Shown: positions 37,260-44,890 of the stretch, piece after piece
Layout of the letters: each line of letters opens with the position of its first letter
How positions within the stretch are numbered: the stretch's first letter is position 1
Origin: an uncultured Prevotella sp.
Lineage (GTDB): Bacteria > Bacteroidota > Bacteroidia > Bacteroidales > Bacteroidaceae
Direction of reading: 5' to 3'
DNA length: 64,000 nt
Assembly (NCBI GenBank): GCA_963547405.1
Contig: CAUURC010000005.1
Location: 3,655-67,654 of the forward strand
The notes under the pieces: generated by a model
What the model was told of the DNA's origin: nothing
Seen by the model: the letters and a program-made list of their open reading frames with translations, nothing else
Database searches by the model: none
Program-made: the position numbers and the translations under genes

Positions 37260-37432
37260 AAAAAACGCGCGCAAAAGACTACTTTATGCTCTAACCACCC
37301 GCCTGCCCGCCCGTTCACCGACATGATGATTACCGACATAGCTTTTTATCTATCGCTTGATAAATTTTATCTGTTGTGTCCTTTTCCGATAAGCCCTACC
37401 TTTGCATCAGAAAAAGAAACATTATTTATAAT
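37260..37432 (+). repeat. left copy of a 173-bp direct repeat (duplicated dps promoter region)
   Basis: It aligns with 44718-44890 with 9 mismatches, and the 3' part of about 95 bp is identical. It contains a TAccTTTG -7 box at 37397-37404. Confidence 0.9.
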
Positions 37433-37563
37433 TTATTTCTTTGTTTGTAATCTATCTTTCACTATATTTGTCAGCAGAAACAACTTTTACCTTAAATAAT
37501 CAGACACAGAGAAGGCGTTGTTTTTTAGTAAAAAATAATCTAATCAATTTATATTTTTAGCTT

Positions 37564-37998
37564 ATGAAAAAATATTGTTTATCCTTTTATCTATTATTAT
37601 TACCATTCATTTCTGTTGCACAGAATCAGATTGGGTACGGTTACGATTCGGGCGGCAACCGAGTAAAACGTAAGATAATCATGACTTCTCCCAAAGGGAT
37701 GGCAAAACCGGAGGCATTTCATTCGCAAAATCAAATATACGTAGAAGCACTCCGTGAACATACAGTATCAATCTATCCCAACCCAACCGAAGGAGATTTG
37801 AAGGTTCGTATCCTGAGTTTGACAGACTCGGATAAATGTGTATGGTGGATATATACTAATCAAGGAAAACAGATCTTGACGGGTAAGGTTGTCAATGGAT
37901 GTGTAGATATAAATATCAACAATCAGCCTTCTGGTATCTATCTTTTGAAAATAACCATTAATAATCAGTCTACAACATGGAAAATCATCAAGAAATAA
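37564..37998 (+). CDS. small secreted protein: signal peptide, a single YD/RHS-type repeat and a T9SS C-terminal sorting domain
   Basis: Signal peptide MKKYCLSFYLLLLPFISVAQ. GYGYDSGGNRVKR matches the YDxxGN(R) RHS repeat. The CTD motifs are SIYPNPTEGDLKV, SGIYLLKI and WKIIKK. Its stop lies 5 nt before the Rhs ATG. Confidence 0.75.
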   Translation: MKKYCLSFYLLLLPFISVAQNQIGYGYDSGGNRVKRKIIMTSPKGMAKPEAFHSQNQIYVEALREHTVSIYPNPTEGDLKVRILSLTDSDKCVWWIYTNQGKQILTGKVVNGCVDININNQPSGIYLLKITINNQSTTWKIIKK

Positions 37999-38003
37999 AA
38001 CGT

Positions 38004-44000: not shown

Positions 44001-44147
44001 GATACGTATGATTTTGATATACATACCGACAATTTTTTCAACTGGCATACGATAAAGCGCAACATCGAAACCATAGGTGCCGGTATCCTGCATGGTACGG
44101 GAACTCCATTTAAAATAATTTTTAACGGGTTATACCATAACAAATAA
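38004..44147 (+). CDS. SpvB-N / FG-GAP propeller / RHS-repeat (TcB-TcC-like cocoon) polymorphic toxin with variable C-terminal toxin domain
   Basis: The start is taken at MRIYLCGVLLALSNVSQTIVASA (signal peptide). SpvB-type N-terminus: GELSVSNSGAAIYNLKIKVPNGGPLTPQICLSYNSQ. Seven DxDGDG-type FG-GAP repeats are present (DLTGDGISDIV, DFDGDGYNDLV, DTDGNGKDGII, DYNNDGLADLI, DFDGDGLIDFV, DINHDGRSDVM, DFDGDGYMELA). Many YDxxGN repeats follow. The Rhs core end is RLYDPVLGRFFSPDNY...NRYSYCLNNPLKYTDHSGE. Confidence 0.9.
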   Translation: MRIYLCGVLLALSNVSQTIVASASQVSTALHMPDEKNAVGSPEGELSVSNSGAAIYNLKIKVPNGGPLTPQICLSYNSQSYGYGLAGFGVNITGLSAITRGGHNLFDEGRRDGVTYTANDNYFLDGKRLILQSGTAGQDGAIYTMEGNPFTKVIIHGTYTSSWISTWFEVRTSDGKVYQYGKTLNSKLGYKNKEGDLRIASWHINKVEDKYGNYINYDYTVSDLNVRPHEITYGMNSVKNRGIVNKIHFDYQSIGTNSRPFTIEDQQGRMDVCLSSITSSCNNSVYRTYTLDYDGRLSSKIDDWTLLVKVVEKNGKGEALPPVILNWKIPTDSYIRTSKIDVSTSDTRSYIEEGDKAFLAVDLTGDGISDIVRISQVKVTDYAWYNGKYQHDETYVYISRSKVSPVGNVTYETPMIFSLPASFSMGDLDRVLGGTSAMDFDGDGYNDLVISYHNQAKDYWNEEDFYFILGADVVAGRTGAATPVPIQLQTSDDKPLFTVLDTDGNGKDGIICVEREKKDGFYPCSIAKLKEGTQLDITKLKLDLAYDPVKIFAGDYNNDGLADLILLSDNDYKIYYNNGGTPETPKFMEANTKRGTDFCDHWRMQQGDFDGDGLIDFVYNVSGESHLWIAHNNGDGTFTSTKTMNIGVADGFSGKDNKRFSISVCDINHDGRSDVMVAKSEYKKGPFPGYKTKYVNTPVKWLISTGRTFQLANSYTKDREEDALECTIFMGDFDGDGYMELANYGSKLNSTDDTFDEKINVYKIGDDMSSFGKIVSITDGMDNTSRIQYAYTTNPIVYKRTLPQQYPVNTYTLPLSVVAKVTADNGAVGSQTTNYFYEDLRIHIAGKGMLGFNTLTKENMTMGTTEKMNVVKWDEKHWIPVELKVTNTIGSSSSVVVTKTTIAEQGKTNYFAYVSQKDITDLDGNTATTITHYDVEKGVVTDETVKNGGEDMYKKVSYSGFQNKADVWLPTILTMTQKHKDDSSPFTTVTTYGYDSKGNILTTTTNSGTGLALKTTSTYDVYGNVLSSVSTGNGVKAVTKYNDYDPSGRFVVKSYTHPASAVNTFTYDIWGNLLTESDVTDPSNPLTAKHTYDGWGRKLSLLASDGTLTAYETGWGTADAKKYYVKEATIGKPAVTTWYDKGGHEVLRESIGARGVPITKTTDYNRRGEVSRISNKTGLLVITQTLTYDERGRVVSDESSSGRFTSYTYGNSTVTSTTAGRSYTKTIDAWGNVVKATDPVGEVTYTYFSNGKPSRVKTNGSTVTMGYDAAGNQTKLTDPDAGTTTYTYAADGALLTQIDGRGIKTSNTYDDLGRLSSARLGQHTVTYSYGTSGNEKLRLVKKAMGDNAIEYTHDHFGRVITEKRSIGGNGTFVFSYEYNGKNQLAKTHYPGGLEVTYSYDDNGFKTETAANGYTINKLESYNGLVTVNLFKKALRAVRRLDERGFESNAMLINGGTSIEYLTTEYEGTTGNLLSRKRNQGPIESFEYDNLDRLTGVKEGYAERMKISYATNGNILFKTGVGNYSYEETNRPHAVAEVDNTDGKISSDVLTTTFNDFGKIQLIADEGKRLRMDFVYGPDRERWISELSKEGTDIRTTIYAGDYEKVVEKERTREFYYLDGNTILIKENGVFKAYLAFTDNLGSIISVIDENGAKVFEASYDAWGRQTVTLNSIGLHRGYTRHEMLNEFDIINMNGRLYDPVLGRFFSPDNYVQLPDNSQSFNRYSYCLNNPLKYTDHSGELFGIDDAVFAFALFGVANSMMQAAYNGKNVLSAGLLSLAYSAATYGIGSLLGNVGGLGRELLRAGMHGLAGGLYGLANNEKFGSSFLSGALSSGIGSFAQGVHINGGLMLASTTTMGGLAAWVTGGDFLQGAIQGMMIGALNHAQHDQYDPMNNPEAAKVRSRNRIKKDPKYKQKIISEIQKDGKLSFEEAFYWYGYGDGSDIYVDASKLDLEKIDITNRKVGEHWSIQTLTSSGNYSVGLVYGRITVEYQGNNSFRILPDTYDFDIHTDNFFNWHTIKRNIETIGAGILHGTGTPFKIIFNGLYHNK

Positions 44148-44695
44148 TGTGTAGAAGAATATTAAATATCGTTGTCCTGCTCTTCTGTAGCCTCCTGACT
44201 TCGTGTCTTGGTGTGTTCTATATAGACTTAGGCAATCATTATGCATGGTTGGAGGACAGAATAATAGTTAAGATAAAAGAAGAAACGGAAAACAGCCTTT
44301 TCTATGATCTTCTTATCCGCCCACAGGTCTTGAATTATGGCTATGACAATAAATTCATTATAGCCTATCAGCTTTACGATGGCAGTGAATGGTATGATTC
44401 CAATCAAATTGCGGAAGAAAAAGACAGTTTGTTAATCCAATTCGCAAAACTGAAAGAAATGAAACATTGCTATTGGATTATAGATAAAGAGACAGGTCAG
44501 GTCATAGGTCCTATGAGGAAGCTCGAATTTGACAGAAAATGTGAGGCACTTCATGTGAAGGCAAAAATGCGCCATTTCCATGAAAAGAAATTCTGGGAAG
44601 GCATGAGCATGGAAGATATTGATCCGGACAGCACTCAGAGGAAGATAATGGACGCGGCCATGGATACGGTGACGAAAGGGAGCTCTGCGCAATGA
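44147..44695 (+). CDS. putative cognate immunity lipoprotein (182 aa)
   Basis: Its ATG overlaps the Rhs stop (TAATG). Lipobox LLTSC. The YWIIDKETGQVIGPM motif is common in small Bacteroidota immunity-type lipoproteins. Confidence 0.65.
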   Translation: MCRRILNIVVLLFCSLLTSCLGVFYIDLGNHYAWLEDRIIVKIKEETENSLFYDLLIRPQVLNYGYDNKFIIAYQLYDGSEWYDSNQIAEEKDSLLIQFAKLKEMKHCYWIIDKETGQVIGPMRKLEFDRKCEALHVKAKMRHFHEKKFWEGMSMEDIDPDSTQRKIMDAAMDTVTKGSSAQ

Positions 44696-44717
44696 ATATA
44701 ATTCTCTCAGCTCTAGC

Positions 44718-44890
44718 AAAAAACGCGCGCGAAAGACTATTTTATGCTCTAACTGCCCGCCTGCCCGCCTGTTCACCGACATGATGATTACTGACATAGT
44801 TTTTTGTCTATCGCTTGATAAATTTTATCTGTTGTGTCCTTTTCCGATAAGCCCTACCTTTGCATCAGAAAAAGAAACATTATTTACAAT
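44718..44890 (+). repeat. right copy of the 173-bp direct repeat; functional dps promoter region
   Basis: See 37260-37432. The TAccTTTG box at 44855-44862 lies 47 nt before the dps ATG. An upstream ATAG/CTAT-rich segment (catagttttttgtctatcgcttgataaattttatc) is loosely OxyR-site-like. Confidence 0.85.

Follow-up and report, generated by a model that had tools for sequence, protein, structure and literature searches.

How an Rhs toxin operon came to stand between two copies of a host stress-type promoter, and what this may mean for transcription of the genes on either side, is the question raised by a locus of an uncultured Prevotella sp. (GenBank assembly GCA_963547405.1, contig CAUURC010000005.1), from which a stretch of 64 kb, here termed the window, was analysed. 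Three co-oriented genes, coding for a mini-protein with a type IX secretion system (T9SS) C-terminal domain (CTD), an Rhs protein and an immunity-type protein, lie in the window between hlyIII and dps, and the region upstream of dps, designated as P, is found on both sides of them, as P1 on the left and P2 on the right. The explanation we favour, with a probability of roughly 70%, is an insertion by replication template switching that duplicated P, with P1 probably adding inducible transcription to the toxin operon.

The duplicated region and the empty site

P1 (37260–37433) and P2 (44718–44891), both on the plus strand, form an ungapped direct repeat of 174 nt with 9 mismatches (95% identity), the sole long dispersed direct repeat in that part of the window. 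The first-pass annotation had described the repeat at these positions, as 173 bp with 9 mismatches, and the measurement agrees with it; its identical stretch of ~95 bp was instead overestimated, the longest identical run being 80 bp (37349–37428, including the TACCTTTG box). Eight of the nine mismatches are located within the 5' 89 nt, and the ninth, at 37429/44887, is followed by four matching bases. P2 points into dps (44909–45403, plus strand; Pfam Ferritin-like, E=3.2e-25, with homologues labelled Dps by their sources) and ends 18 nt upstream of its ATG, whereas P1 points into the cassette.

The enclosed segment (37434–44717, plus strand, 7,284 bp), which extends from the cassette promoter to the immunity gene, has a GC content of 0.425, compared with 0.517 for dps, 0.529 for hlyIII and 0.514 for the Na/Pi transporter gene, so that its AT-richness relative to the flanking genes (0.51–0.53), first noted by eye, was confirmed by the count; the native intergenic region between hlyIII and P1 is also AT-rich (0.365). 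Neither integrase nor transposase was found among the enclosed open reading frames (ORFs), three in number and with non-recombinase domains only, as had been proposed from the first reading. No tRNA was detected in 30000–50000, and an Rfam scan of 36000–46000 retrieved no RNA element. An integrase- or transposase-borne island was thus rejected, there being neither a recombinase nor a tRNA target, and the repeat being 174 bp of host promoter.

Same-species contigs were retrieved by exact-protein look-up of Dps from many metagenome samples, and are 96–98% identical to the window; the same look-up with HlyIII returned no record. Among them, L001, together with one similar place, carries an empty allele made of hlyIII, a 1.07 kb AT-rich native spacer, exactly one copy of P, and dps. 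This is the arrangement that the first-pass annotation expected of a relative without the cassette. L001 is collinear with the window through 37433 and again from 44718; the 7,284-bp segment is absent from it, and P1 has the position of its single P. The duplication half of the earlier proposal, an insertion with promoter duplication or capture, is therefore supported by the empty allele.

The arrangement P-cassette-P-dps was also found in L002, an independent contig from another sample, and in two similar places, both junctions being as in the window. We considered whether the locus could be an assembly artefact, namely a chimeric join of two strains or loci at shared sequence, as short contigs often break inside P (L012–L016). 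Nevertheless, the same junctions were obtained by MEGAHIT and by SPAdes from different samples (L002, L004, L031, L036 and L041), and the 9 differences between P1 and P2 indicate that they are not one collapsed sequence, which makes an artefact very improbable.

To establish the specificity of P for this locus, its 29-nt core was used in exact-match scans. A single match was found in 185,579 GTDB species genomes, in an uncultured Prevotella metagenome-assembled genome with the order array-P-dps, and a single one in the JGI metagenomes, at the dps locus of a 2.3-Mb contig carrying the dps-duplicating allele described below (L003 type). With one match per collection, both at the dps locus, P is not a dispersed element, and the dispersal check suggested by the first-pass annotation is answered in favour of a locus-specific repeat. 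The idea that P is a dispersed repeat, or a mobile or invertible (phase-variable) promoter unrelated to dps, could draw on a 14-nt A/T-rich imperfect inverted repeat (37253–37266 / 37520–37533) that brackets P1 and the cassette promoter. However, the arm located in the leader is not conserved in L031 or L032, no equivalent inverted repeat surrounds P2, only two copies of P occur in the window, and other species, too, have a conserved P core upstream of dps, so that the chance of this explanation is close to nil. An invertible promoter was likewise discarded as a candidate after an inverted-repeat search gave only weak, non-conserved A/T-rich repeats. Flanking repeats were also rejected as a general hallmark of such cassettes, since same-family cassettes at other loci (L019, L023) have none.

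An OxyR-type dps promoter stacked on the cassette promoter

Both copies of P contain a putative OxyR-type operator, ATAG-N8-CTAT-N6-ATAA-N7-CTGT, on the plus strand (37338–37374 in P1; 44796–44832 in P2). The pattern matches the window twice, in P1 and P2 only, and gave no match in 100 shuffles. It is separated by 22 nt, the same distance as in other Prevotella species, from the -7 box TACCTTTG (37397–37404 in P1 and 44855–44862 in P2, plus strand), which would place the transcription start of P1 at around 37409. Both P1/P2 mismatches within the 37-nt operator fall in its first N8 spacer; P1 keeps everything P2 has, and both copies are intact. The -33 element of P is only GTTG, though the -7 box is present, a combination that fits an activator-dependent promoter. 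Across 16 copies of P, variation affects 23 of 78 columns in the 5' part and 11 of 96 in the operator/promoter part. The sequence GATAAATTTTATC was first read as a Fur/PerR box, a reading abandoned when cross-species alignment placed it as the third and fourth elements of the OxyR-type operator.

The same layout is found upstream of dps in two distant Prevotella lineages, whose Dps proteins are 70–74% identical and whose genomic contexts are different: ATAG-N7/8-CTAT-N6-AT[AT][AG]-N7-CTGT, exactly 22 nt, and TA(C/T)CTTTGCATCAGAAA. When the composite pattern (operator, 22 nt, TAnnTTTG) was searched in 30 loci covering ~370 kb, it was retrieved only in the P copies, upstream of dps (L025–L029) and upstream of sod (L028); all the P copies match except that of L017, which has a 2-nt insertion in the spacer. 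In L028, sod is divergent from a LysR gene encoding the OxyR redox motif GHCFRDQLVKFC (GHCFRDQ...C). Based on these features, P is a dps promoter with a putative OxyR-type operator, and the right copy is indeed the dps promoter, as the first reading of the locus had it. L028, from another Prevotella lineage, also holds, at 1307–6489, an oxyR-sod-ahpC-ahpF-dps cluster, in which the sod and dps promoters have equal operator-to-(-7 box) geometry; the shared geometry could seed a motif for a Prevotella OxyR regulon.

The OxyR operator of E. coli reportedly consists of four ATAG elements, as described by Toledano et al. in 1994. Like it and like Bacteroidota dps promoters, P has four ATAG-like elements abutting the -33 region, to which OxyR would putatively bind. 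OxyR-dependent dps promoters are described in the Bacteroidota B. fragilis, P. gingivalis and P. intermedia, and in the latter the induction of dps by air or H2O2 is lost in an oxyR mutant (PMC7999485). Unlike in the known OxyR-dps promoters, a second copy, P1, points into a toxin operon.

The left copy had been proposed to head the cassette, and its position and orientation agree with this. P1 is not, however, the sole promoter of the cassette: a full Bacteroidetes -33/-7 consensus, TTTG-N19-TATATTTG, is present on the plus strand at 37440–37470; it begins 7 bp past P1 and precedes the ATG of the CTD gene by 94 nt. The full consensus (TTTG-N19-21-TAnnTTTG) has only 3 matches in the 64 kb, and in cassette-family loci of other species the CTD gene is likewise preceded, at a comparable spacing, by a TATATTTG box, as judged by eye, the boxes being out of register in the alignment. 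P1 is thus located in tandem ~65 bp upstream of the cassette's own promoter and, because the cassette retains the latter, is predicted to be an added promoter and not the only one. The arrangement is one of promoter stacking, and the capture half of the earlier proposal does not stand. No terminator-like site was found between the inferred start of P1 (~37409) and the CTD gene, nor between the immunity stop codon (44695) and P2, and folding of the leader RNA between P1 and the CTD gene showed no excess of structure over shuffled sequence (z=+1.6).

With two promoters in tandem, it is conceivable that P1 is a functionless by-product, the toxin operon being transcribed only from its own promoter at 37440–37470 with no OxyR wiring. 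P1 would then persist by recency, by gene conversion from P2, or as the recipient flank in allele exchange. The full consensus of the cassette promoter and the similar placing of the TATATTTG box in other cassette-family loci agree with such a by-product, as do the cassettes at other loci, which work without any P. The same holds for L031, where identity to the window is 99.1% in P1 and 82% in the adjacent cassette leader (92% in the CTD gene, 99.6% at the 5' end of rhs), as if P1 were a recipient flank and not a selected part of the cassette. On the contrary, the operator, the spacing and the -7 box are intact in every P1 that heads a cassette (window, L002 and L031), nothing was found that would block read-through from P1, and an active OxyR promoter at that position would by default transcribe the operon. 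A functionless P1 is accordingly a serious possibility that we nonetheless consider the weaker one, and OxyR control of the toxin operon through P1 is plausible from the arrangement of these elements.

Junctions, donor-like context and allelic states

The look-up of the immunity protein of the window led to the identification of a second genomic context for the cassette, in L034/L035 (GCA_017426725.1), L032, L040, L042 and L043, where the flanks are unrelated, P is absent and the adjoining genes are Na_Ca_ex/Vut_1/QueF. Homology between the window and this context extends from 37432 to 44714 and ends there on both sides. On the left, the flank of the second context reaches the cassette as ...AATACGGAATTAATTTCATTTTTTTGCTT, and the only bases that its junction (...TTTTTTTGCTT/CATTTCTTTG) has in common with the end of P are TT, a microhomology of 2 nt. 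On the right, both read ...CAGCTCT, which is followed in the window by AGC (44715–44717, a 3-nt filler) and P2, and in the second context by another orphan toxin, of the type of the variable Rhs C-terminal region (CT). The Rhs core of the two contexts is 80–90% identical. Over the last 1.7 kb (43000–44714, toxin and immunity) identity is instead 100.0%, an indication that the loci or genomes have exchanged the toxin-immunity module very recently. Positions 1–6568 of L034/L035 entered the comparison, and L034 is devoid of the sequence corresponding to window 37700–38705, leaving a truncated CTD gene.

These junctions fit a replication template switch or another illegitimate event with two junctions, to judge from the end-products. 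According to the reading we favour, a complete T9SS-associated Rhs expression unit of 7.28 kb (promoter, CTD mini-protein, Rhs and immunity gene) would have been copied into the dps control region by a polymerase that left P at 37433, crossed the donor segment and re-entered P at 37260, thus copying 174 bp of the target a second time. Two illegitimate junctions would suffice and no recombinase would be needed. P2 would keep dps under the full OxyR-type promoter, and P1, as an intact second copy, would probably allow oxygen or peroxide to induce additional transcription of the toxin operon. Thereafter the cassette would be lost, regained or exchanged between alleles by homologous recombination, with the two P copies and the core flanks as arms.

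Template switching of the fork stalling and template switching/microhomology-mediated break-induced replication (FoSTeS/MMBIR) type, as well as homology-facilitated illegitimate recombination, are known routes to such products. Like FoSTeS/MMBIR duplications, the locus shows a foreign segment, junctions with 0–2 nt of microhomology or a short filler, and duplicated target flanks, without need of a recombinase; unlike the documented cases, the mechanism is here read from the end-products only.

Direct repeats flanking an insert that lacks a recombinase are also the classic signature of a Campbell-type integration, in which a circle carrying the cassette and one P would enter by a single homologous crossover within P, and recombination between P1 and P2 in carriers would yield precisely such circles, plausibly for spread from strain to strain. 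However, P is missing from both ends of the cassette in the one other context found for it, which leaves the first origin unexplained by this route, and the junctions, with their TT microhomology and AGC filler, look illegitimate and not homologous. Taken together, the donor devoid of P, the 2-nt microhomology, the 3-nt filler and the second copying of 174 bp of the target speak against Campbell integration as the founding event, a route that we regard as improbable, later spread in this way being compatible with the data.

Besides the empty and the window type, a third allelic state was found in the species (L003, L004, L005, L010 and L017), with the order hlyIII-P-dps-DUF488'::Rhs'...array...P-dps. 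In this L003 type, a duplication of 1,042 bp covers P, dps and the initial 140 bp of DUF488, resulting in two dps copies, and residues 1–43 of DUF488 continue in frame into the C-terminal ~700 residues of Rhs, which start at about residue 1355. The junction, found unchanged in 5 samples, connects window position 45759 to 42037 across a microhomology of 11 nt, GAGAYAACGCC. The two sites involved are 45749–45759 in the DUF488 gene (45620–45997, plus strand, with its own consensus promoter at 45553–45584) and GAGACAACGCC in rhs (42037–42047, plus strand). Microhomology-mediated rearrangement therefore does occur at the dps locus, as an independent second event. The DUF488-Rhs fusion ORF is split into two ORFs in L017.

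The left and right boundaries of P are identical in all 16 aligned copies, thus indicating a single founding insertion. The same copies are mosaic in haplotype and so uninformative on the crossover point. It is plausible that the cassette subsequently spread, was lost or was swapped between alleles by way of the P copies and the core flanks, and the mosaic identity patterns fit this.

The reading of an insertion into an originally empty site has to be weighed against several points. All the comparison sequences are metagenome assemblies, a caveat that applies to every allele comparison. With its Rhs core only 80–90% identical, the second context does not qualify as the immediate donor. The operator spacings of P, N8/N6/N7, are unlike the N7/N7/N7 of the E. 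coli OxyR operator, each of the first two departing by 1 nt from the consensus, and no oxyR gene is present within the window. The cassette's own consensus promoter could make P1 silent or irrelevant. Finally, the direction of change lacks an outgroup, as the nearest Dps relatives (79–84% identity) are on contigs shorter than 1 kb and those at 70–74% identity have dps elsewhere, for example in ahpCF or oxyR-sod-ahpCF-dps contexts. Instead of being ancestral, the empty allele may thus have arisen by deletion between P1 and P2.

If so, the cassette state would be the older one, and alleles of the L001 type would have lost the cassette by recombination between the two copies, for which a 174-bp repeat with 95% identity is sufficient as a substrate of RecA. 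The empty allele has exactly one P, with a mosaic haplotype, and the cassette alleles are diverse (92–99% identity, several CTs), which suggests some age; against these stands only that no outgroup able to decide was found among the Dps relatives. We consider a derived empty allele quite possible, if still short of an even chance, and compatible with an older insertion. The closest non-conspecific relative (L030, a 661-bp contig with Dps 84% identical) starts 19 nt before the dps ATG, that is, at the right edge of P; this edge would fit a repeat-induced assembly break, but coverage is 2x and it may be chance.

The cassette, its neighbourhood and its meaning

The first gene of the cassette (37564–37998, plus strand) codes for a 144-aa mini-protein with a signal peptide, one YD-type hairpin, a linker and a T9SS type-A CTD (Pfam Por_Secre_tail, E=2.7e-11). 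The second (37977–44147, plus strand) overlaps the end of the first by 22 nt, as in other species, and codes for an Rhs protein of 2056 aa carrying a Sec signal. Its N-terminal domains are SpvB, FG-GAP and FG-GAP_3 (TcdB_toxin_midN is recorded on allele L006), followed by RHS_repeat in 3 stretches (Pfam E=1.8e-27; TEN_YD-shell is recorded on allelic products); Pfam retrieved no PAAR domain in the cassette proteins. The variable CT (43209–44147, plus strand), consisting of a Gly-rich segment and a putative toxin domain, follows the core-end motif NPLKYTDHSGE, a variant with DHSGE in place of DPxGE (reference PxxxxDPxG[LE]). Homology between alleles breaks at this motif, at 43209 (L002, L017 and others), and Pfam and PDB sequence searches with the CT region retrieved no relatives. 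The third gene (44147–44695, plus strand) codes for a 182-aa immunity-type protein with a weak match to DUF3997 (Pfam E=1.3e-5), and closes the array in every dps-locus allele that spans the array end (L002, L004, L006–L009, L011, L036–L039 and L041). In L002 another CT is followed by a new small ORF, the 182-aa gene of the window being kept as an orphan, and in L006 a long orphan array with about 10 downstream ORFs lies between rhs and P2-dps. From this domain content, the cassette is of the Rhs/YD polymorphic-toxin class and of a T9SS-linked SpvB-Rhs subtype, its toxicity and neutralisation being putative.

The mini-protein belongs to a family of 76 homologues of ~144 aa. At the inspected loci it is followed by an SpvB-type rhs, then an immunity gene, then orphans, and the 22-nt overlap with rhs was found in all three homologue families inspected (P0019, P0014 and its own exact copies, L012–L016). 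Such mini-protein/rhs modules are scattered at unrelated loci of Prevotellaceae, including Hoylesella buccalis. The hairpin motif is IGYxYDxxGNRVKR, with Y27, D28, G31, N32 and R33 invariant in 24 homologues, down to 29% identity. An AlphaFold2 model predicts a hairpin of strands 22–27 and 33–39, a CTD with a predicted local distance difference test score of ~95, and a disordered linker. When the YD motif was tested with Pfam, the corresponding segment of homologue P0004 matched RHS_repeat at E=0.03, below threshold, and the segment of the window gave no match. The hairpin might dock on the YD shell of Rhs, in this way supplying the T9SS sorting signal in trans.

Rhs/YD polymorphic toxin loci carry arrays of orphan toxin-immunity pairs, and in enterobacterial Rhs loci C-terminal displacement is said to have been described by Koskiniemi et al. 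in 2013. Like these, the cassette has a YD-shell core ending in a PxxxxD..GE-type motif, then a CT that varies and, next to it, a small immunity gene; other alleles have different CTs with the old immunity gene as an orphan (L002) or long orphan arrays (L006). Unlike these, its N-terminus is of SpvB/FG-GAP type (TcB-like) with a Sec signal and is not PAAR/VgrG-linked, the Rhs protein is paired with a T9SS CTD mini-protein, and the CT matches no known family. Closer counterparts, as far as the consulted parts of two papers describe them, are P. gingivalis PGN_1817 (T9SS cargo) with PGN_1818 (Rhs), and the SpvB/TcdB-Rhs genes of Apibacter located beside type-A sorting-domain genes (PMC6775972, PMC8125069). 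In those passages, as in the window, a small CTD gene lies directly upstream of a large SpvB-type Rhs gene whose core-end motif terminates in ...GE, and T9SS export is putative in all three modules alike; the passages make no mention of a single invariant YD hairpin in the small protein (PMC6775972, PMC8125069). The cassette differs from the P. gingivalis and Apibacter modules by its location within a duplicated host promoter.

On the left of the insertion, hlyIII (35522–36187, plus strand; Pfam HlyIII, E=5e-40) is the core-genome neighbour and is syntenic in all same-species contigs. It is followed by the native AT-rich hlyIII-dps spacer (36188–37259), which is outside the insertion and belongs to the stretch collinear with L001. 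A portion of this spacer of 613 bp (36235–36847) is missing in L010, including a 58-aa minus-strand ORF (36329–36505) that is a called gene in other contigs. A palindromic element of ~130 bp (AAAGCATAGCTTTTG...CAAAAGCTATGCTTT, 36940–37070) is located further downstream in the spacer, upstream of P1, and matches itself reversed in L017. On the right, dps is followed by an intrinsic terminator (45442–45473, plus strand; a 13-bp stem, then a T run), so that dps is monocistronic. A gene for an extracytoplasmic function (ECF)-type sigma factor (46081–46581) and an adjacent 220-aa gene are present in the window, L006, L007 and L009 and absent from L001, L002 and L008, window 46052–47193 thus being a second presence/absence polymorphism, 1.1 kb downstream of dps. 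Far from the locus, a 1396-aa minus-strand ORF (11855–16045) contains three tandem repeats of 600 bp (200 aa) at 13233–15038, with 70–88% identity; it matches no Pfam family above threshold and may be a repetitive surface protein.

Three points of this analysis are new: the cassette retains a promoter of its own, the junctions are delimited by a second context, and P-dps-DUF488' is duplicated in another allele. The locus stands out by its combination of features: without an integrase, the insertion doubled a host promoter of OxyR type, the host gene is still regulated, the toxin operon has a second promoter, and several derived alleles coexist in the species. Since the promoter was doubled, the control region of dps is preserved and the incoming operon acquires a second promoter of stress type; the locus is a junction-resolved natural case of a toxin operon placed in a stress promoter with the host gene not inactivated. 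Practical significance is moderate, given that the cassette type and the OxyR regulation of dps are both already known and that the regulatory link is putative.

Antagonism under a peroxide sensor has a counterpart in the OxyR-regulated T6SS-4 (type VI secretion system 4) of Yersinia pseudotuberculosis and Burkholderia thailandensis. The likeness of our locus to it is putative, being deduced from sequence. Unlike that experimentally established case, which concerns a T6SS in aerobes or facultative organisms, the locus described here involves a promoter duplication in an anaerobe. A stronger proposal is that P1 is active and selected, oxygen or peroxide switching on a T9SS-linked Rhs toxin through OxyR in this strict anaerobe, and that the promoter copies act as portable homology arms of an integrase-free module whose loss, regain and swapping among strains depend on RecA only; taken as a whole, we judge this unlikely, and put it forward tentatively.

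The three allelic states in one species and the two independent microhomology junctions offer material for the study of recombinase-free mobility of Rhs cassettes. Should P1 fire, the locus would provide a simple model for the plugging of horizontally acquired weapons into host regulons, and, in an anaerobe of the gut or mouth, would tie antagonism to oxidative stress; the killing of other bacteria would go along with such stress, for example at an inflamed or oxygenated mucosa.

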